A stretch of 64,000 nucleotides of DNA from Vermamoeba vermiformis (lineage: Eukaryota). The stretch covers positions 310,001 through 374,000 of the forward strand of contig JBEWZL010000236.1 in NCBI GenBank assembly GCA_045837725.1, read 5' to 3'. The position numbers and the translations under genes are program-made. Below are positions 4,539 through 54,007 of the stretch, one piece after another (within the stretch, counting starts at the first letter, position 1; every line of letters starts with the position of its first letter). The notes below the pieces were generated by a model. The model was not told the origin of the DNA and made no database searches. It worked only from the letters and a program-made list of their open reading frames with translations.

Positions 4539-7256
4539 CTACAATAATAAAGCAATAATTAAACCAACAAACGATACTTGTGCAATATTTGCAGATGAAA
4601 TTCCGTTCACTGAAGGAGATCCGTTGCCATTATTAGGCCCACCGGTACTAGGACCACCATTGTTAGACGGTGTTTCTTCGGGAGGACCAATGAGCTTATC
4701 ACCATCGAATACAAAGTTGGTCGTGCCTATATTGAATGACCATTCTCCGTTGGAGCCTTGTTGGACATCCGGAACATTTCCGGTGCAATCCGGATCTATC
4801 AACACAACGAACGAAGCAGTCGTAGAATTCGAAGTAAACATGAACTGGCCGTGTGCTTGATTCGGCATTGCGATGAGTGCGTTGGCAGGGAACTGATCCG
4901 TTTGCCAGAAAGTGACATCCTTTGACGCGTGCAACATGTTCACGCAGGCTGAGACACCTTGTCTATTGCTTTGAATGACTGACGGCGAGACCTGTGTGAA
5001 GTTCTCGTAGGCGTGAATGTTCCATTCAAACTGGCGTGGCGACACAGCGTCAAATCTGTCGAAAATCAAGAACTGATTTGCTGCTCGCAAATAGACCAAT
5101 GAGCGAATGGCACGTGTCAAGCGCAGTTGAGAATCAGCAGCGAGACCTGCATTGTAGGCCAACAAAGCATCGCCGGTGACGTAATCATAATCCTCTGTTG
5201 TCGCGTACTGCGTGATATTTCCAGCAGCTTCCATGGTGTCGAAACCTTGGCCCATGCCACCATCCATGGTAATGGCACCAGACTGGGCACGCGTTGTCTT
5301 TCGCCAGTTTTTGTGATGCGGTGACATATAGTAGTCATAATAACCACTGGCAATGAACACTGGCTGCGCCTTGTGAACCATCGTGAAGCACAATTGATCG
5401 GCGTTGTTGTGGTTGAAACTGCCGTACTTGGACGCGCGGAAAAACAACGCAGTTCGGTTGTAATCCGACATCGAGCTGTGGAATGCAGCCCAGCCAGGGG
5501 TCTTCAGATGAATGGACTTGGGATAATCTTTTGTCAATGTCGGAACATTTTCAAAGTCCGCTGACCAAATGGTGTCGTCGTATCTGAAGTCCAAGCCGAT
5601 CTTGTACCGCGGCATCTGTGAACAGTAATTGTTGTACAGCTCGGCCTCGTACAGATCCGGATGGGCTTGCACGACACGACTGTGAAAAAAATGCAAATAT
5701 TAGCATTTGGATTCCGTTCTTGATGTCCAAATTTGGAATAAAAAATAAAAAAGATAACAGATCTTGGTACCTGAACAAATTGTTGCAGACTACGGGCAAA
5801 GCTCCGCTAAGCATTTCCTTCTCGCCGTCGTCGCCAAAACCAAGACCACCAAGTGTCGCAGCATAAGGACCAAAATAGACGAATTGGCTGGGAAACTGAA
5901 TGACATTCTGTTTGTTGACCAAATTCACGCCAGTAGCCCAGTATAAAAAATCGAATCTAGGGCCATCATAACCCTCCCAGTAAGCATAGCCGAATCCATT
6001 TGAAAATCCACCGTCTTCTCCGCTCCACGTGCTGTACAAGTTGAAGTTCATGGGGATTGCCACAGCCCATAAATCTGCTTGCGGAACATCTCCGAGCATG
6101 CCAGCTGCCACCATTGCCATGAAGCCGAGCGTGTTAGCGCCGTGAGAATCGTGCGGGTAATACATCAGACCCGTCAACTGACCGTACGCGTTGTAGATCT
6201 GGGTGCCGCGATTGACGATCACGGAGAGCAACGTGGCCTTGTCTGACGCACTGAACGAGGTGCCGATGAGGTCGTAAGCTTCAGTCAAGGCCAAGAAAAT
6301 CGCTCTGTTGGCTTGATCTTGACCCACTTGACTCGTCGTACCATTAGGATTGGCACTCGCCAACAGATTCACACGGCGCTGTAGCTCGGTGAGAACAGTC
6401 GTGTTCGTTGGATCGTACCAAGCTGCGTACATTAACCCGCTAATGGACGCTACGAGTGGCTTGACAAAGTTTCTGTAGTCATTCATAACAGCCGTGTCAC
6501 GTGCGGTGCCAGCTGGGTAATCAGTTAACAACAGTGTAGGGGCTGCAGGCAACGAAGCGCCAAAGAAACTCTCGATCCAAGGCTTGATGATGTTTTGCAT
6601 GCGGGTCTTGAAGCTCGTGCCGATCGATGAAGCAAGCCACGTGTCACGCTGTTGGCCTTTCATGAACAGGCGTGGATGCGCTGTTTTCTTCGTGTCTTCA
6701 ATGACGGTGTCTGGCACGACGAACGGAAGAGCAGTAGGTGTCAAGTAAAACGAGCGGACTGCGCTGGGAGTTGACACGCTGGTTGACAGGGTGACACGTG
6801 TCACTTGCCACAGATACGAGGTGGCTACGGGCAGCGTGAAAGGAATGTTCAAGTACGAATTCTTTGGTGTTGAAAGTCCATTGCGGAGCCACGCCCTCAA
6901 CGGAGCTAACATTGGCCCAAAGAGAAAAGGTGAAGTTAGTGTCGGGACCAACGAATATATAGCCAGACCACCAGAACGAAGGAGGATTCTGTTCGACAAC
7001 GCTCTCGTGACTAGGTACTATACGTCTATTGACAGCAGGTACGGATGAAATCCAATCGACCGGATCTGGTGCCGAAATTGCTGGCAAAAAAAGAAATTAA
7101 ACTTAGTAACAAACTTCTGCGGTATGTAACGAGCACACTATAATTACTAATATGCACGTTGCATTCTGATTATTATTGCAGATGCTTACCTGCTTGGGCA
7201 ACCAAAATGAGGCCGGCTAGAATTGCGATCTTGGAAACGATGCCAGTAGAAATCAT
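4539..7256 (-). CDS. Heparinase II/III-like (DUF4962-type) polysaccharide lyase with signal peptide and GPI-anchor signal; apparent frameshift near 6862
   Basis: ATG at 7256 (MISTGIVSKIAILAGLILVAQA). Introns at 7189-7081 and 5770-5680. Motifs QNPPSFWW, AHPRLF, DGGFSNGFGYA, GFGDDG, HNNADQLCF, SGYYDYY.SPHHKNW, FEWNIHA. C-terminal P/S/G/N linker followed by hydrophobic tail VSFVGLIIALLL*. Confidence 0.8.
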
Positions 7257-42418: not shown

Positions 42419-43219
42419 ATTTTTAATTTAAGCACCGATCCCAACAACACCTTTGTAGTTTCGTGCTAGTCTTATAATCAACCCCTGTGCATTGATTATA
42501 AACGTCAATTGGTTCGCAGCGTCAAAGGTTTGCGTTGTGGTAAGACTAAGATCGAACCGTTTGTTTAAATTTTATTTTTGTAATCCATTAGGGTAGCTTG
42601 TATCTTGACAATTATGGCAAAAAATTGCTTCAATATAATTTCACTTTTAAAATTAATTTGCTTCGGAGGACCTTTTTTCATGTTTTACCCGAATTTCAGA
42701 GAGGCGCGCACGGGAACTGGATCGTCTTCTGAAATGCTTCAAAGACTAACTACATGAATTAGTATGCTGACAGAACCGTCTAAACCAGCTTGCATGGAGT
42801 AGACATTGCACAATGGAGCAATCCGTTCGAGTCAAAAGATCCGGAGGTGCGCACACGTCGGAACGTAGATTACCGCGAGTGGATATATGGCCGTTACAGA
42901 GCCTAAATTACTAACTATGTGCTAATGTAACGTTACCGAAGCGAATGGAATCGATTGATCTAGTAAGACTAAGCTAGTCGCATGGTATCTGTTGCAGCCA
43001 GAGAACGAGTGGTGTTTGGACAAAATAGGAATTGGCTCAAATTCGCGTAAATTATGAAAACAAATTACCGAACCACGAGTACAATTCACGACGCACCGTT
43101 CACCAAGACTCGCGAAATTTCACCCCACGTGGTTTCGAAGATAAATAGCCCACGCTGCGTGCTTTTCTTTCAATCAACAAAACAACACCACAACACAAGC
43201 TACTTAATACTAATCAAAT

Positions 43220-44470
<1,251 letters not shown>

Positions 44471-44824
44471 ACGGCCAATCAGCACCGACCTCTTGTTCAT
44501 AGCTTTTGTTCATAGTTTGTAGTTAGTTTTATCCCGTAGAATTTTATAGCTATGTAGTTATTTGTGAATAAAGATAGTTTATGCCCAATACAATTTCCCG
44601 TGGTGAGCGCCCAGCCTATTATCGTATAGAAACCGACCGAACGCAGAATCTTTTCTACAAGAACAACGTCCAGAATACTCATAATGATTAAATCGCTCCT
44701 TGTGACTTTATTGCTATTTAATACATCGTTGCTAGTACTGCTCTGGTGACGCGAATGAAGGCATCTGAGGAGTGAATTAGTAAGGTGTCGATGAGTGTGG
44801 CAATGGTAGTAAGAAAATACGAAT

Positions 44825-44921
44825 GATCTGTATCAGTGAACAAGCGTTTAAATCTGTCATTAATGATCAGACGATGTCAGCTCTTCCAAAACTGCGCTTA
44901 TTACGGTCATCAAAACAGATC
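44825..44921 (-). ncRNA. C/D-box snoRNA guiding LSU rRNA 2'-O-methylation
   Basis: 7-bp terminal stem GATCTGT/ACAGATC. C box TGATGA (44912-44907), D' CTGA (44870-44867), C'-like ATGACA, D CTGA (44836-44833). The 16-nt element 44887-44872 is complementary, with one G-U pair, to the conserved LSU sequence CGAUGUCGGCUCUUCC. Confidence 0.75.
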
Positions 44922-45269
44922 CAGAAAACAAAAACATTTGAACGTGGTTCAGAATTACCTTCATGGTGCTGCCTCTTCAAAAGAGTATGGATTGCTTCAT
45001 TATGATAATTAACGTGCCACCGATCGTTATTTATTATCACTTGTAATGAAATTTCGGAAGATTCACATTGCCGCTGCGCACGGGTCAGGCCTTTCCGAAC
45101 ATATTCGCAACTACAACGTACACACGCGCTTGTTACGCTTCCTAATGCTTTACTTTTGTTCTGGGGTCTTTCCTCGAATCCAAATAGAAAAATATTGCTG
45201 ATGTCAATAATCTTTTATTCATACATACATTGAGACAGGATGCGCCTCCACTACCGAAGTATTATTGTT

Positions 45270-46365
45270 TTAAATCTTATCCTCTTCCTTAGGACCATAT
45301 AGAACAAATTCTACGAGCTGTTCTCTCGATATTTTCGTTTCTTTGAGCTCTGATTGTCTCTTAGTGTACTGCCAAATACGACTGATATGCATGTGATTTA
45401 GAAAAAGATTATTTTTGCTGTCGTATTTATCCTGAGACAAGTATAGAATGGCTGGTACCAATGACTCTTCGGTGATCAATGATACGAAGTTCGAATAAAA
45501 TAGTGTTTTTGCAACCACATACATTCTAGTCATACGTTTTTTTCGTAGTTCATTGTCGCGGCACATTTTTGATATTTCGGGATAAAAATGGTATCTCGAA
45601 TCAGCCCATTCCCACGAACAATTCATATCTTCGATCATCGGGTTTTGTTGGATCCATCGTTCAATGAACCGTTGAGTCTCTAAATCTTCATAAACATCGA
45701 AATTATCTCGAACGTTAATTTTTTTCAACATTAATCTTGGAGCGTTTTGCCAAGCCATAAGTAGTGCTTTGAAACCATCGACTGTCATCTTATTACCCTC
45801 CAAATTAATAGATTTTAGTCTAATTTTGCTACCCTGACTCCAAGCCTCGGATAATTTAAGTATTTTTGCGTCATCTAGTCCCGCGTAATAGAGTCTCAAT
45901 TCGACCAATCGCTCGTTCTCTTTTAAACCTTCAACCAGATTGACCATATGATCCATAGTGAGACGCGCGTCTCTAATTCGACTGGTCGTCATATCAATCG
46001 TCAAATGAGTCAAACTAGTAATGTTGGCCAAAAAAGTGATGCTTTTCGGGATCGATCCGACAATCGGCAATTTTGATAGAATATTTGCATGCGCGGTAGC
46101 CTCGAATACAGCCTGTATTAAATCAATCGATTTGTCTGACTTGATGGTAATGGATTTAATCGTCTTATTGTTCCGCAGTGCTTTTGCCAGATGTGGGATC
46201 GCATCCCGATCGAACTTTCCGTCCTCGATTTGAAGCTCATATAAATCAGTGCTATTCGATAGATATTCCATAAGAGCCTTCGAGGTGTCTTTATGCGCGG
46301 AGATGCTGCGTATACCGAGTTGACGTCCGTAGTCCAATCTAGTCGCATAAATATTTCGCAGTCGA
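45270..46365 (-). CDS. RI-like LRR protein (5' exons unresolved)
   Basis: ALRNNKTIKSITI, LKENERLVELRL, LKSINLEGNKMTVDG. Acceptor near 46366. Confidence 0.8.
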
Positions 46366-46947
46366 CTGTAACAATAAAATTACGTTTTTCAACATAGAAC
46401 GACCACACTTATATCTTAAAGTTATATTTCTGTACAAAGTGGTCCCTGAATTGACGGCAATTGATGCGAAGTGCCGTAACTTTTGGTTGGTAAGCCAGAT
46501 GCTGGATTTGTTTTTTCTGATCTTCGCATCACAACAAAATTAACGACTAATTCCATCGCGATAAATCATAATATTAATAATAGAGTGCCTCGTAAGCAAT
46601 TACAAGCACTTTTGAATTATTTTGAATTATTTTTTAAAATTAACGCCTCCGATCTGTTCGGCCATTGTGCTGCAACTATTCGGGTCGTACTTTCGATTTG
46701 TAACACTCTTATTAATACAATCTTATTGATAGGTGTGCGACTTCATATTGAGAAGATTTTGTACAGGCGATTTAGGGGACCCGGACTCTATTGTTTGAGT
46801 TTTTTCTGCCATCTTTGTAAACAAATTCCAGTAAATTTCGCACAATAGTGGTGAGTTATTATCACTTTATACATGGCTAATGATTACTCAGTTTATTTTT
46901 GATGTGTTAGATCCGAACCACACGCGACCTCGAAAAGTGCCTCGGCA

Positions 46948-49885
46948 ATGGCCAAAGTAGTAAACCTTGGTGCCACATGCTACATTAGCAGTTCTTTACA
47001 GCTATTATTTAGTATTGAAGCTTTCCGTGAGCTTGTTATATCATCAAAACCTACACACAAACTTGCGATTGAATTTCGACAGATTATCACACTTATGAAG
47101 AGTAATAAAACAATTCATATCGAACCATTAACAAGGCTATTGAAAATATCAAAAGCAAGCTACCAAAAAGAACACCGTGATTTACAAGAGTTTCTGCTCA
47201 ATTTATTGGACAAGTTAACTGAAGACTCTGAGTTCAAGCGAATTATAAAGCAAGTTTTTGGTGGTGCCTTACAACGTAATGGTTCAGAATTAATGGAGCC
47301 TTTTATAGGTACAAATGACTGCTGCAACTCGACTTAATTTCAATTGACTTTATAATTTAGATATTTCAATTCCAGTTGCCCCCGGCAATGTTGTGGACAG
47401 TTTAGTTCAACTTTTCAGCAGTGTACATAACATTTGCATAAGACTTGGATTTTAACTTATTCAATGATAAGGACTGGGGTTCACACAAATTTTTGACATT
47501 CCCCACTGCATTAGTCCTCCACCTTAAGCGTTTTGATAATCTGGGCAACAAGAATGAAGCGAAGTTTCACTTCAAGTCAACTCTAGTTATTCCAGCAAAG
47601 CTCAGTTGTAGTGGTCATGCAGAGACCTACCAACTCAAATCAATAATAGTGCACCAAGGAACTGCTAAACAGGGTCACTACGTAACCTACAGCCTTGCGA
47701 ACAACCAATGGCTTGAACTCAATGATGCAGTCGTCTCAAAGGTAGTCAAAGTATGCCATTTTGCAGGTTCTAACCTCAATGTAGGCTCCCAAAGACTTCA
47801 TGCAGAGGTTATTTGAGGGAATTGCAAGTGCTTATATCTTAGTGTACTGCACACAGCGTATTTCATCCCCAACCAAGTCCAGACCCACACGAATTATTGG
47901 AAATGAATCACAGCAATTTAATGATTTTATGGAATGGGACTCAACATCATGTCAAAGTGATCCAATAGAGATATCAGATAGTGAATATGAAGCAAACGAA
48001 AGTGATGATATGAGTGAATCAATTGAAGAAGATAATGAAGAGACATCAGAAGTCGCAAGTCCTGCAGCAGTGAAAGAAGGTATTGATTTCTCATTCATTA
48101 ATCATTTTGATAACCATTACTGGCAGCTAAACTTCAAGCAAAACTGTCTGGGTGGAAAAACGATGGGAGTAAATTCAAGCCCAAAACTTCTCAACCATTG
48201 ACAAACCCAGGACCAAAGCACCAGCTCATCTTAACAAAAATTAATGCAATACGTCATCAACTGGGAAAGCCAAAACTGTCTTCAACACTACGTGTCACAG
48301 AGCTTGACTGTTACTTACTTATGATGAATGACATAATTGAACATATTGAAAAAACAACAGATGCAAATCTGCACATCAAAGCAGTCGATTTGCGCGCTTA
48401 TCTTGGTGTTAGAATTGCACAACAATTATCGCCAGGTCATTCTGTTGATGACTCTTGGGCCTCCTTTTTGCATTCACGCGCCATGTGGGGCAACAGGTGG
48501 ATTGCTAAAACAATGCTAAAAGATGAATTCAAGTTTATACACCGGAACAAAAAGTAAGTTCGTTGTTCACTCACTGTAATGGTTCTTACCTTTGGTCTTA
48601 GGTATGATGTGTACTTTGTTTGGGCAGCTCTGAATCAAACCTACTCAGAAATATGGGTGCCATTCAGCCACCTTGCTTTAGATGATAAAGCAAATGCTTG
48701 GAAAGGAAGGTCAATTTACAAGATTTACAGATTACGCAAGCCATTCCCTTGGGCAATGTTAGAATATGTCATTATTGATGAAAGTGGATGGATGTCTGGC
48801 TTCATTCCTCGATATGGACTGTTTGCTACCATAACAGACAAGTTCAAGAAATGGCGAGAGTTATATCACGCCTTCAAAACAGGTCAACTTTCGCAAAGAC
48901 CTCTACCATTTAAAACAATGTTTCCACGAGCATCAAAGACAAATTTCGATTTGGAAAAAGCCGTCAGTTTTTTATTGTCAAGACTCCCTGACAAACAAAG
49001 GCACGTTTATGACTTTATTAGAGAACCCACAAATTATGAAGAATGGAACAATCTGACAACTCGAAACTTATCACACTATCATGTATTTTGTGACAGAGAG
49101 TTTTCCTCACTATGGCAGCACCTGCAAAAGCACAATATTGGATACACTGTTGGCATTATTGGAACATCACACCCTAACCTGTTTCAAAACAACCTTGCTC
49201 ATTGTTTACAGCCAGGACAATGGCGCAGCTTAACAAACGACTCAGATATCATCATGTCATTCTATGACCCTCAAGGCAAGACCTGTCACTGGGCTAGTAA
49301 TCGAGGAACAGCAGCCTCAATTTCTGAAAAAGTAATTGATGGAAACAAAAAGAAAAAGCTTGCATACTCTGCTCCCCACTTGGTGCAACAATATCGGACA
49401 TACTTCAGTTCTGTGGATAAGCATAACTCCAAAGCCAAGAAGTTTAAGTGGCCCTACCGGATTCGAAAAGTAACAGAGCGCTTAGTATTTGCAGATTGGG
49501 AGCGCTCTGCTCAAGTTCAGGCAGAAACACTCTTCAAAAGACTCACCAACAGTGATATTCCTGCCAAGAAATTTCTTGCCAATTTAGCGCGCTCCCTGGT
49601 AGAGGAATTCCAATCAAAAAGGAAACGAAACTACACAATAGAAGCGTTAGATCTTGTGCGCGCCAGTGGAAAGCATAATCCATACACCCACACCTGTGCG
49701 TACGAATTTGGCAACTCCAAGCGTTGTTTCTTTTGTCAAACTCAAAAGATATCTTCTTCTACACTGTAAGTATGTGTAGGTGTACTTTTGTCAAACTAAT
49801 TAATTGCCTTAGCTACAAGTGCATTCAGTGCAAAGTTGCCTTACACAAGAAGTGCTGGAAGAAATTCAAAGGTGTAAATCTTTAA
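46948..49885 (+). mobile_element. Ubiquitin-specific protease (C19) fused to piggyBac-type DDD transposase
   Basis: USP motifs: NLGATCYISSSLQLL, HRDLQEFL, LHLKRF, HQGTAKQGHY, WLELNDAVVS, AYILVY. Transposase motifs: LALDD..AWKGR..Y...KP, VFCDREFSS, YFSSVDKHN, C-terminal CFFC...CIQC..LH..C. Short GT-AG introns, including 48080-48126, 48554-48601 and 49766-49812, keep one frame. Confidence 0.85.
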
Positions 49886-49923
49886 GTTTTGTACAAGGAG
49901 TTATCAGTTAACTATTGTGTGAA

Positions 49924-50191
49924 TAGCATGTAACACGTTGTGGTGTAGCATGAGCACGAAAGTGCCTGAGGCGGCTTTGACGCAAAAAACCTCGTGTGTA
50001 GGCACTGAGAGTTTGGGGATAGTCAGCTTGCTTCAGATTTATTCACATAATCACCTGCTAGGCTAACTGTTAGTAGCATGTAACACGTTGTGGTGTAGCA
50101 TGAGCACGAAAGTGCCTGAGGCAGCTTTGACGCAAAAAACCTCGTGTGTAGGCACTGAGAGTTTGGGGATAGTCAGTTTGCTTCAGATTTA
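49924..50191 (+). repeat. Two-copy 118-bp direct repeat (150-bp period)
   Basis: 49924-50041 and 50074-50191 differ at two positions. Confidence 0.95.
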
Positions 50192-50230
50192 CTCAACAGA
50201 CGATAGCCTGGGCTACTATTGAGCTTATTT

Positions 50231-51033
50231 ATGAGAAATGGGAGCAGCCATGTCCAAATTCTGGTACGTCTACCGTGTAGACTTCCAGTTGGTTAAGGAA
50301 TATTGTAAGTCAGTTTGAAAATTCGAAGAATCGGATCTCTGATTTAATTGCCCACAGAAAAAGCCCAAGAAGCGCAAAGTTCAAAAATCTAAATCAGAAG
50401 CAGATGTAGTGGCAGCGATATTAAATGACCCAAAAATGAAAGAAATGTTGCCGAACGGCGAAGAAGATTTTATCGTCTCGAAAACACTTGACGCGATTTA
50501 CTGCAACATCTGCGACACGAAGATCAATCTGGGCTATCCAGGTACGCTCACAGCTCTGGCGTAAGATAATAACAGACATTAATATTGATATTAGGCACGG
50601 TGACCAAGTTCCGTGATCACATCACCGGACAAAACAACGCGACGACTTCAAAGCACCGTAGGAATTTGGAGAAGCTGAAGAACAAAGAAAAGTAATTATA
50701 TCACCGGTCATAATAGTCCGCAAATTGGAGATATTAATGTGTTGTAGGGATGACCAATCAGAGGAAGGACGATCGAAAGGCAATTTGAAAGTTGTGCTGG
50801 AGAATGCACGAGCACGCATGAGCAATGAAAAGGGCCTGACAATGTGTTATTGTCTGCAGCCAGCAGCGAAGATGTACAACGAACAGTTTGATCGCGCGTA
50901 CTGGCGGTGTGCCACTGTGGGCTCGGATGGATTTCCCGTGTGCAACTTCAAAATGCTCGCAACGGACAATGAAATCGACAGTAGTTCGAGCGACAAGGCA
51001 GCGATTACTAGCCTATTGGATGGTACTGTGTAA
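50231..51033 (+). CDS. Small nuclear zinc-finger protein (NLS, C2H2/matrin-like finger, GRF-like finger)
   Basis: Spliced model MRNGSSHVQIL|KKPKKRKV...CNICDTKINLGYP|GTVTKFRDH...KH...|...CYC...RAYWRCA...CNF. The start codon is uncertain. Confidence 0.6.
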
Positions 51034-51097
51034 TATAAAAGTGATCAAAAACGAAATAAAAATGTAAAATAGTGTACAGAAAAATCAACTTAATGAT

Positions 51098-52693
51098 TTA
51101 TTTCTCTTTCTTTTCCTCTGAAGGTGAAGCACTAGCAGCACTAGTATTGGTATTGTTATTGTTAGCTGTGTTAGTATTAGTGTTATTATTGTTAGCTGCG
51201 TTAATGTTATTGCTATTGTTGGCCGCAGGGTTAGTCGCAGCAGGTTTGTTGGGCTGGTCCTTTCTGAAATCATTCAAGAAGCCACACGCACCGCAAATAA
51301 ATTCTGTTAATAGCAACGTGAGTTGGCACGTGCAATAAAAATATCATCGTGCACTTACGGATCGAGTCCATTTCTTCAATCGGTGCCAATCCGTTGTGTG
51401 CCTTGCACTTCTTGCAGATTAGAGCAAAGCTCTTGCTCGGCGAATCTCCGACGAAGAAATCGAGCAATTTGTCCATCAAACCGCGATCTAACATGTCCGT
51501 GTCAATGACGTGTCACAGTTAATTGTTCACCAATAACACCGTTGACACTTACCTTTGTCCTCTTCGGCGCTGCTACTGCTGATTTGATTCGGTGTGAACA
51601 CAGTGCCAACAGGTACTTTAGGGCCCGTGATTGGTGCTGGCACGTGAGGGCCTGGTGCGGGATTGACAGGTGCGGGTGAAGTGCCAGGGATTTGAGGACG
51701 AATCTGCGGCACTTGTGGCTGCTGAGGCTGAGGTTGTTGAGGCTGTTGCATGGGATTGACGGGCATGTGAGGCTGTGGTGTTTGAGAATTGGGACCCGGG
51801 CCTCGTGTCGGAGTGTTGGGTCCGGGACCAGGTCTGTAATAGCATTAGGACCGTTACATAATATAGATATTGTAGTACCTGGTGGGCGTGCCAAGATTGG
51901 GTGGAGGATTGGGCAACAAACTCTTTCTGCGGTCAAATCGGTTGATGACATTCTCCACATGCGAGAAGTTGATTTTCGCTTTGTACTCTTCCAGCTGATG
52001 ACGAAATTAGCTCAATATCGCTGCTATTATAATGACTACTAACCTTTTCTTCTTGCTTCTTTTGTAGCTCCTCTAACTTCAAAGCTAAAAATGTATTTTA
52101 GTACACGTCAACAGATCTGATCGAGCAGCAAAAAATTGAAAAATAAAGAGGCATTATACTTACTATCATTGGTGCTTCTATATGCGTAGTATTGATTGAT
52201 TACACGTTTAAATACATAGGCTCTAAATAAAAGAAAAAATTAATTAAAAAATCGAAAAAAAGCGCATAGTATATCAACGTAATTCGTGTGGTTAATATTT
52301 TTGCGTTGTTCCTCGTTAAATAAAAATTTTTGTATTGATGGATAAAAATTTTGGCGCACTTACAATAATAAGGCTAAAAACAAAGGAGAGGCCCAGAGAT
52401 AGTTCTCTAGTGGAGTAGTGACGTGTAAAAAGAACTTCCAATATACAAGATAGCTTATTTCGAATATTAGTGTCACTATAAGTAATCTGATCACGTTCGT
52501 CCTATGATTGACTTGATATTGCTTCAATCGAACTTGAATCTTCTGTATTTGTTGGTCTATTTGTTCGAGTACTTTTTCATAATTTTCTTCCTATTTAAAT
52601 CGTCTATTAGACATTGAAAGAAAGTTCGATCCAGATTGCAATCTTTATGCGTATTCCAAGTACCTTCTTGAATAAGGAGAATACGAATCCCAT
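51098..52693 (-). CDS. LNPK: Lunapark ER junction protein
   Basis: MG start at 52693, two TM segments, Pro/Gln-rich region, DKLLDFFVGDSP..FALICKKCKAHNGLA...FICGACGFLN zinc ribbon. Confidence 0.9.
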
Positions 52694-52807
52694 GGTGTGG
52701 TATTATAATATATTTAGACTTGTGCTGTGGTGCTGCAAGTCCTTGATCGGTGACGAAAATGAAATTTGGCGACGTCAGAGAAGTCAATCAAAGTTCAGCG
52801 CCTAATT

Positions 52808-53848
52808 ATGACACAACGATATACGAGGGAGCAGTTGTTCGAGAGGAGCAACGTGCTGGCAAATAAACGAGAAGAGGAGCGCGAGAAGGAAGAGATCGAA
52901 AGGAAAATCAAGAAGTTGAAAGACAATGAAGAAGATTTGTTAATTGCATTGAAAAAATTCGACGATGATATGGCTATGCAAATTAATCGTCAAAAGCGAG
53001 AAATTGAACGCGTTAAAGAACGGATTCAGGATTTAAAACAAGAGGTACGGTTTAAAAATCTACTATTTAATACAAAATAATTCTATCGCTACAAGATCAA
53101 TGTAATTATCCTGTTACATTGGGTTATTGTATAATAATGATTTTTTATGCAGCTCAATTTCAACCGCAGTATTGATACGCAAGTTAAATCGCATCAATCA
53201 GAACGAAAGAATTTTATCAGCGCTAAATACAGTCCAAACTATTATTATAGCGATAAGCGAGCTAAAAATACTTCGAGCGACGAGTCAAAAGATTATTTTG
53301 AGAAGCAACGCGAACGAAAAATTAAGACGGTAGAAGCGGAGTTAAAAGCACTAGAAGAACGATTGAATGAGACACAACGCGATTACGACAGCGATAGAAA
53401 ACGAAAATTAGAGGAATTGAAAGACCTGCAGCATCAGACACGCGTGCAGGCGAGTGAGATCCGACAAGAATATGAAGACAAGAAACGAGAACGGCGTCAA
53501 GCTGAGCGCGATGAACAAGATAAACAAAGGTAAGCTCTAGATCCAAGTACCAAAGAGATTTTTGGGAATAAATATCGTGATCGAGAGAATCTTTTGCTGA
53601 TTATTGCTTGAAATTTCAGGCGACACAAAGAAATCGAACGACAAGTGGATCGTGACGTGGAAGCTGAACGGACATCAGCCCTGCGTGCATCACTCAGCAC
53701 ACGAGGATCGAGCACTAAGACCTCATCATATTCGAGGACATTAGAGAAGACACAAGACGAGGACGAAGAAGACACAGCGAGTGCACGTGACAAGTACAAA
53801 ATTGATCGTGTGTTGCCGCCAATGAGGAGGAAGAAATATTATTACTAA
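52808..53848 (+). CDS. Charged coiled-coil protein of unknown function
   Basis: Three E/K/R-rich ORFs joined by GT-AG introns (donors near 53045 and 53530). Confidence 0.65.
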
Positions 53849-54007
53849 ATACGGCATTATAATGTAGTTTAATAGTACAGTACTTCTTGTAGAATAAAAT
53901 TGTGCTCTGTATTGGTTGAATCGCGAACTTATTTACATGATATTGAATATATGTACACTTGTTTGGTTTTCGTTGTTTTTCGCTATTATTTACAGGTTAT
54001 TGTTATT

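Follow-up and report, generated by a model that had tools for sequence, protein, structure and literature searches.

The capture of transposases is a known route to new genes, in which the captured part is usually a DNA-binding domain and its partner usually a regulatory module. In the piggyBac superfamily, the primate CSB-PGBD3 fusion joins a host N-terminal part to an entire piggyBac frame, has long been conserved and is expressed from the host promoter, with a ‘3′ exon trap’ offered as the explanation for the tolerance of piggyBac transposases to N-terminal fusions (PMC5381638). PGBD1 is likewise an old N-terminal fusion, to SCAN exons, and is a host gene without terminal inverted repeats (TIRs) (PMC5381638), while PiggyMac and its ciliate relatives are piggyBac-derived host genes thought still to cut DNA, providing a precedent for an intact catalytic triad in a non-mobile gene (PMC6143343). 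Proteases of the ubiquitin pathway (UCH, OTU and Ulp1) are in turn found with a DNA-transposon protein in Helitron-like elements (PMC11417382), all these statements following the available portions of the papers cited. Here we analyze a stretch of 64,000 nucleotides from Vermamoeba vermiformis (GCA_045837725.1, contig JBEWZL010000236.1, positions 310,001 to 374,000 of the forward strand; hereinafter the window), in which a gene at 46948-49885 of the + strand encodes a ubiquitin-specific protease (USP) domain followed by a piggyBac-type transposase. On balance, we favor reading it as a host-resident, expressed USP-piggyBac fusion gene, the 883-residue protein of which has been selected in at least two diverged organisms, and which no longer looks mobile.

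The gene comprises seven exons and six GT-AG introns that splice to a single 883-codon frame without an internal stop (Table 1). In this frame the USP (peptidase C19/UCH) domain is followed by an acidic linker, a piggyBac N-terminal region, a core bearing the three catalytic aspartates (DDD triad) and a Cys-rich tail. A first-pass annotation, made from the letters of the DNA alone, had proposed six short GT-AG introns joining these parts into one open frame, and this structure holds, with introns of 43–52 nt. The motifs that it had listed were each located at their place in the spliced frame: NLGATCY at residue 6, GHY at 209, WLELND at 221, the VKE|AKLQ junction at 327, LALDD at 496, CDREFSS at 635 and SVDKHN at 742.

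Table 1. Positions in the window of the fusion gene, its leader and the conserved elements downstream of it.
Feature	Position	Strand	Details and basis
5′ untranslated region (5′UTR) exon	46404-46489	+	at least 86 nt seen; loose end of X1 contig 1 maps to 46459-46488
5′UTR intron	46490-46732	+	243 nt, GT-AG; donor GT at 46490
Second 5′UTR exon	46733-46850	+	X1 contig 1 on 46732-46850; carries in-frame stop before ATG
5′UTR intron	46851-46910	+	60 nt, GT-AG; 14-nt loose end behind 46850 maps uniquely to 46911
Exon 1	46948-47308	+	splice model
Intron 1	47309-47360	+	52 nt, GT-AG
Exon 2	47361-47422	+	splice model
Intron 2	47423-47471	+	49 nt, GT-AG; removed in X1 contigs
Exon 3	47472-47741	+	splice model
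Intron 3	47742-47784	+	43 nt, GT-AG; removed in X1 contigs
Exon 4	47785-48079	+	holds USP end and acidic linker; splice model
Intron 4 (key junction)	48080-48126	+	47 nt, GT-AG, phase 1; splice model, same position and phase in L001
Exon 5	48127-48553	+	piggyBac N-terminal region; splice model
Intron 5	48554-48601	+	48 nt, GT-AG; removed in X1 contig 4
Exon 6	48602-49765	+	splice model
Intron 6	49766-49812	+	47 nt, GT-AG; splits Cys-rich tail; splice model
Exon 7	49813-49885	+	TAA stop 49883-49885; splice model
USP (peptidase C19/UCH) domain	46948-47859	+	residues 1-~256, exons 1-4; Pfam UCH and PDB matches
Putative USP catalytic codons	Cys11 46978-46980; His210 47676-47678; Asp226 47724-47726	+	motif alignment
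Acidic Ser/Asp/Glu-rich linker	47860-48079	+	residues ~257-329; in exon 4 with USP end
piggyBac N-terminal region	48127-48553	+	exon 5 (GW..G..F.P .. GPK..IL..IN); aligns with N-termini of stand-alone relatives
piggyBac catalytic core	48602-49586	+	Pfam; alignment to piggyBat 9c0f
Putative transposase catalytic codons	D499 48681-48683; D636 49092-49094; D744 49416-49418	+	piggyBat alignment
Cys/His-rich C-terminal domain	49668-49885	+	split by intron 6 (49766-49812); splice model
Tandem structured RNA-like elements, two copies	49918-50195	+	right after stop; L001 3494-3790
Short conserved block	50265-50303	+	L001 3813-3851; blastn 90% identity over 39 nt

Evidence for transcription comes from one public run available as contigs (X1); the RNA nature of this run is a guess, and it is the splice joints that point to RNA. 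Three raw-read RNA runs under the same species label (X8-X10) yielded 0 reads over 46500-50300, which is uninformative. Six of its contigs align to the locus at ≥99% identity; they lack three of the six coding introns (2, 3 and 5; one contig on 48269-48553 is joined to 48602) as well as both introns of the 5′UTR, showing expression as a spliced, host-type mRNA. The leader starts >540 nt before the ATG at 46948, and its two introns bring the total for the gene to eight. In the spliced leader an in-frame stop lies 22 codons before this ATG, and the protein thus starts with the USP, its Cys box at residue 6. The part of the first leader exon at 46459-46489 also contains an ATG that opens an upstream open reading frame (ORF), ~14 codons long and continuing past the first UTR splice, which may exert translational control over the fusion gene. 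Head to head with the leader, on the - strand at 45270-46379, is a 369-codon frame that looks like a leucine-rich-repeat (LRR) protein, with no Pfam match at E≤0.001. Its end is separated from the first observed leader exon by ~25 nt, and one promoter region may serve both genes.

The USP half is recognized by the Pfam UCH profile (PF00443; cut-off 23.9 bits) in scans of the unspliced exon frames, the exon-1 frame matching model positions 3-129 of 254 (E = 1.3e-15, 58.2 bits) and the exon-3 frame positions 142-239 of 254 (E = 8.8e-18, 65.3 bits). Its PDB matches are all USPs (USP34, 7.3e-10; yeast Ubp8, 3.7e-07), with NLGATCY aligning with the Cys box of USP34, and GHY and the ND motif aligning with Ubp8. 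From general knowledge of the family, we take Cys11, His210 and Asp226 to be the catalytic residues; the motifs that contain them are present, consistent with the apparently intact active site claimed at first pass. Many USPs carry paired CxxC motifs. In this USP, judging from the sequence, only a short stretch without a paired CxxC separates the FGG block from the KRF block; hence, its ubiquitin-gripping part may be reduced, and its grip and specificity may differ.

The transposase half is identified by the Pfam DDE_Tnp_1_7 profile (PF13843), the second of the two profiles expected at first pass, which matches the exon-6 frame at E = 3.8e-11 (43.3 bits against a cut-off of 22.4) and the exon-5 frame below threshold (E = 0.016, 14.9 bits); the nearest clusters in the ESM Atlas all carry PF13843. 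The matches to the two profiles go well beyond what chance would give. A phmmer alignment of the exon-6 product (P0001) to the piggyBat chain 9c0f_C, weak taken alone (E = 0.12), places its D27, D164 and D272, which are D499, D636 and D744 of the gene model, at chain residues 243, 315 and 419. The active site of piggyBat consists of D237, D309 and D413 (PMC11707139, available portion), and the constant difference suggests that the chain numbering equals that of the paper plus 6, so that the two triads would coincide. The three Asp motifs equated at first pass with the piggyBac triad do appear, on this alignment, to correspond to it, and the same three aspartates are invariant in all eight aligned sequences (alignment A1). 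Beyond the core, the spliced tail has the pattern H-x4-H-x-C-x9-C-x2-C-x12-C-x2-C-x4-H-x2-C; it has no match to Pfam zf-Tnp_2 (PF13842) and weak RING- or C1-like matches with E above 0.04.

The best relative of the exon-6 product, at 66% identity, leads to a metagenome contig of 4379 nt (L001), which encodes every part of the architecture, likewise ordered, in 887 codons, with 58% amino-acid identity to the window gene. All six introns are shared, each with GT-AG borders at the same position and in the same phase (the counterpart of intron 4 lies at 1660-1702), and the catalytic motifs of both enzymes are all present, the Cys box, QEFL motif, His box and ND motif of the USP being conserved in both genes. 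Between the two genes, amino-acid identity is 49% in the USP, with a proportion of nonsynonymous differences (pN) of 0.35, 58% in the N-terminal region (pN 0.29), 65% in the core (pN 0.23) and 76% in the Cys-rich tail, the most conserved part (pN 0.16), while the synonymous counterpart (pS) is saturated at 0.79-0.92 in these four domains. The linker, with 40% identity (pN 0.45, pS 0.54), is near neutral (pN/pS 0.82). As pN of 0.16-0.35 stands against a saturated pS of ~0.8, both halves, the USP included, are by this comparison under purifying selection over a long divergence.

More generally the family is rare, with 37 relatives of the exon-6 product at E≤0.001 among 1.84 billion representatives. 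Four relatives (P0005, P0007, P0009 and P0043) are stand-alone, uninterrupted ORFs of 588-723 residues that belong to the same sub-family as the transposase half (24-31% identity) and differ from the fusion in having neither a USP domain nor introns. Like the fusion, P0005, P0007 and P0009 show the N-terminal region with its GW..F.P motif, the DDD core and then a Cys-rich end, and they share with its core the invariant D, D(REF) and (V)D.H; for P0043 the alignment covered the N-terminal region only. In P0005 and P0043, an acidic N-terminus immediately precedes the GW..F.P..GP(K/R) motif that opens exon 5. A UCH domain was found in none of the 16 relatives scanned, a count that does not extend to the upstream exons of P0003 and P0008, the closest relatives after L001.

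Several observations weigh against our reading of the locus as an immobile host gene for one fused protein. AlphaFold modeled the exon-6 product with low confidence (pLDDT 54.7), and the top three Foldseek matches of this model, all to piggyBac or piggyBat chains (6x67_C, 9c0f_D and 9c0f_C; E = 6.9e-06 to 2.8e-04), reach TM values of only 0.19-0.25, lending weak support to a piggyBac-like fold. Longer proteins with the full architecture (679-2000 aa searched with the exon-6 product, 248-2000 aa with the exon-5 product) were not found in the collections searched, and a search for near matches returned only P0002 and P0003; this is weak evidence, as most entries for eukaryotic contigs in these collections are exon-sized calls. 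An active transposase, too, would have its DDD triad and Cys-rich tail intact; the conserved 3′ flank spans only ~420 nt, and L001 is too short to reach neighboring genes or show synteny; and the conserved block at 50265-50303, with its TTAA at 50293-50296, might be the right end of a transposon, either still live or as a relic. Regarding the junction of the two halves, none of the six X1 contigs lies between 47912 and 48268, leaving intron 4 uncovered, and retention of that intron would yield a USP-only protein, with a stop after 40 codons in the window and 3 in L001.

Some of these points suit an alternative in which the locus is an autonomous piggyBac-like transposon with a USP passenger, the window and L001 copies are members of one long-lived element family, and the downstream repeats and TTAA block constitute its right end. 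Such an element would account for the triad and tail being not just intact but the best-conserved parts and for the conservation of the 3′ flank, while the stand-alone relatives, free of introns, have the appearance of ordinary transposase ORFs, and the captures in Helitron-like elements supply a precedent for the passenger. We nevertheless regard this alternative as unlikely. No TIRs or TTAA-bounded ends were recovered when 43000-54000 and both flanks in the window and L001 were searched for repeats, the flank repeats being only short chance matches, none of them common to the two loci. No TTAACC[CT] site occurs in 45000-52000, and the search for a left partner of the right-side TTAA block gave 18 matches (≤3 mismatches) against 20.5 expected, the sole exact match being the block itself. 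By blastn, the two loci resemble each other in DNA only between the ATG and a point ~420 nt beyond the stop; upstream of the ATG, where L001 has 522 nt, there is no similarity. To this may be added the distant start of a leader with two introns of its own, the six coding introns against none in the relatives, and the very few copies in very large collections.

The conserved sequence downstream of the stop also argues against a transposon end. It contains two tandem copies of an element of ~110 nt with a 31-nt invariant core, spaced exactly 150 nt start to start in both loci, and this core occurs only twice per locus, both times on the + strand and downstream of the gene, with no inverted copy upstream of it in the window or L001. 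RNAalifold on the four element sequences gives a four-helix structure with 120 of 120 cells paired and compensatory changes in 8 of 30 pairs, some of them between the two L001 copies; none of 500 shuffles reach these values, and slid controls have 24-52% of cells paired. As the structure was derived from the same alignment that was used to score it, these figures are suggestive rather than proof. The many G-U pairs point to the + strand and, like the compensatory changes, speak for a structured RNA and against a DNA end to which protein binds. It may be a 3′UTR element or a separate pair of non-coding RNAs; Rfam has nothing near threshold for it, and a scan of 49800-50400 for bacterial-type promoters and terminators, not meaningful for a eukaryote, gave 0 sites. 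The block at 50265-50303 consists of a small hairpin, the stem of which is shifted but kept, followed by ..GTTGG TTAA GGAATAT, at which the similarity between the loci ends. This block is 90% identical though the silent sites of the gene are saturated, and in the window it overlaps a short ORF starting at 50251.

Thus, of the two possibilities raised in the first-pass annotation, the domesticated chimeric gene is favored and the live transposon is not, given the lack of TIR or TTAA ends, the eight introns as opposed to none in the relatives, and the L001 copy of the same structure under selection. A long-resident host gene is further suggested by the far-upstream leader, by the GC content at third codon positions, which is similar in the two halves (0.376 and 0.393), and by the ordinary genes that surround it, which code for actin, an LRR protein, an ankyrin protein and an EF-Tu-type GTPase. 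The fusion gene is present in one copy in the 64-kb window, and its locus is probably immobile.

A second alternative is that the halves are mostly separate products, with the USP arising by intron-4 retention or early polyadenylation and the transposase from another start, the 883-residue frame being minor or unused. The uncovered junction and the early stops that retention of intron 4 would bring in both genes leave room for this, as does a two-fold difference in contig depth (3.5 and 7 in the two halves, depths that can also be read as similar), a comparison that rests on six contigs. The coding sequence on either side of the junction nevertheless makes it improbable. Exon 4, which encodes the last strand of the USP as well as the acidic region, is open exactly to its donor in the window and L001, its lengths differing by 9 nt, and the indels in the fast-changing linker are multiples of three. 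Intron 4 keeps its GT-AG borders and phase 1 in both genes despite the saturated silent sites. Exon 5 codes from the acceptor on and is conserved from a few residues past it. In both genes its first ~65 residues include no Met, and the earliest Met in the second half, residue 394, lies well inside the conserved sequence. Moreover, only this splice restores the ancestral order of an acidic region followed by the GW motif. From the conserved intron, the exon open to its donor, the exon without a start and the acidic N-termini of the relatives, we infer that the two domains are read as a single polypeptide. Disordered N-termini with casein-kinase sites are typical of the piggyBac superfamily (PMC11707139, available portion). 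On account of this description and the acidic N-terminus that precedes the exon-5 motif in stand-alone relatives, the true fusion point probably lies inside exon 4, in which case the ‘linker’ would be the transposase’s own acidic N-terminus and intron 4 would interrupt the transposase-derived part.

That the locus is a decaying relic, or a USP gene and a dead transposase that came to lie together by chance and have no function as a unit, finds no support other than how often dead transposon copies are neighbors of genes in general, and it is highly improbable in view of the full-length open frames of 883 and 887 codons, the invariant catalytic residues, pN far below saturated pS in four domains, the spliced RNA, and the saturated synonymous sites, which also argue against recent transfer as the source of the similarity to L001.

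For the favored reading of a domesticated fusion gene, we propose that a compact USP deubiquitinase was acquired at the N-terminus of a complete piggyBac-type transposase, which would have kept its acidic disordered N-terminus, N-terminal region, DDD RNase-H-like core and Cys-rich, putatively DNA-binding tail. The tail and the core would bring the protein to DNA or chromatin, and DNA cutting is probably retained, as the DDD triad is conserved. The tethered USP might then remove ubiquitin in cis, either from the protein itself, thereby stabilizing it, or from chromatin proteins at the bound sites, such as ubiquitinated histones. Both enzymatic activities and their targets are predictions from conserved motifs. 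There is a slim chance that the gene specifies more than this, namely a working DNA-cutting enzyme with a built-in deubiquitinase in a non-ciliate eukaryote, which ties the cutting or rearranging of DNA at defined sites to deubiquitination of chromatin or of the protein itself, while the downstream RNA pair acts as a bound cofactor or as a target through which the Cys-rich tail exerts autoregulation.

Two other features of the window merit mention. Just past the actin ORF (43297-44100; Pfam Actin, 2.3e-86), the segment 44144-44227 matches Rfam mir-3533 at 63 bits, below the gathering score of 104; it is probably no microRNA but part of the actin coding sequence. On the - strand at 4539-7017, two overlapping long frames match the Heparinase II/III C-terminal domain (2.9e-16) and DUF4962 (2.5e-13), indicating a gene that resembles polysaccharide lyases, of a kind often found in bacteria, inside an intron-bearing eukaryotic window; it was possibly acquired.

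The fusion gene couples a second enzyme, from the ubiquitin system, to a transposase that is complete and whose triad is under selection, and two or more diverged organisms retain the pair. Viral replicases carrying their own deubiquitinase offer a parallel. If both activities are real, the protein would be a natural nuclease or recombinase with a tethered deubiquitinase, bearing on the control of transposase stability and on DNA transactions coupled to chromatin ubiquitin marks. A compact, naturally self-deubiquitinating relative of piggyBac would also be of possible interest for the engineering of piggyBac tools. Independently of the protein, the downstream structured RNA pair is an unclassified element worth naming.

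The first-pass annotation knew of no fusion of a USP to a piggyBac transposase, and we likewise found none in the full-text literature, a search that stopped short of supplementary host-domain tables and domain-architecture databases. Neither ‘ubiquitin’ nor ‘protease’ occurs in the available text of PMC5381638 (0 occurrences each, its supplementary tables lying outside the look-up), and the only match to ‘ubiquitin’ in the available text of a preprint on transposase capture (bioRxiv 10.1101/2020.05.07.082677), its supplement again outside, is the name of a promoter. We therefore see the USP as a new, enzymatic partner for a known kind of gene, the host-transposase fusion or domesticated piggyBac. 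The protease passengers that the annotation named for other DNA transposons are borne out, for UCH itself, by the Helitron-like elements (PMC11417382). Those elements, however, encode a rolling-circle RepHel and hold their captures inside mobile elements, while the gene in the window encodes a putative cut-and-paste DDD enzyme with no transposon ends seen. As for the ciliate PiggyMac proteins, the available portion of PMC6143343 describes no deubiquitinase domain in them, and the window gene differs further in its standard code, TAA stop and short introns. In CSB-PGBD3 the partner is the N-terminus of an ATPase, connected by alternative splicing into an intronic element, whereas here it is a whole USP domain joined within one exon; PGBD3 does not strictly conserve its DDD motif (PMC5381638), while that of the window gene is intact in a transposase part interrupted by three introns. 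Finally, the host part of PGBD1 is a protein-interaction domain, and its transposase part has a degenerate catalytic motif and lacks the Cys-rich domain (Table 1 of PMC5381638), both of which the window gene has kept.

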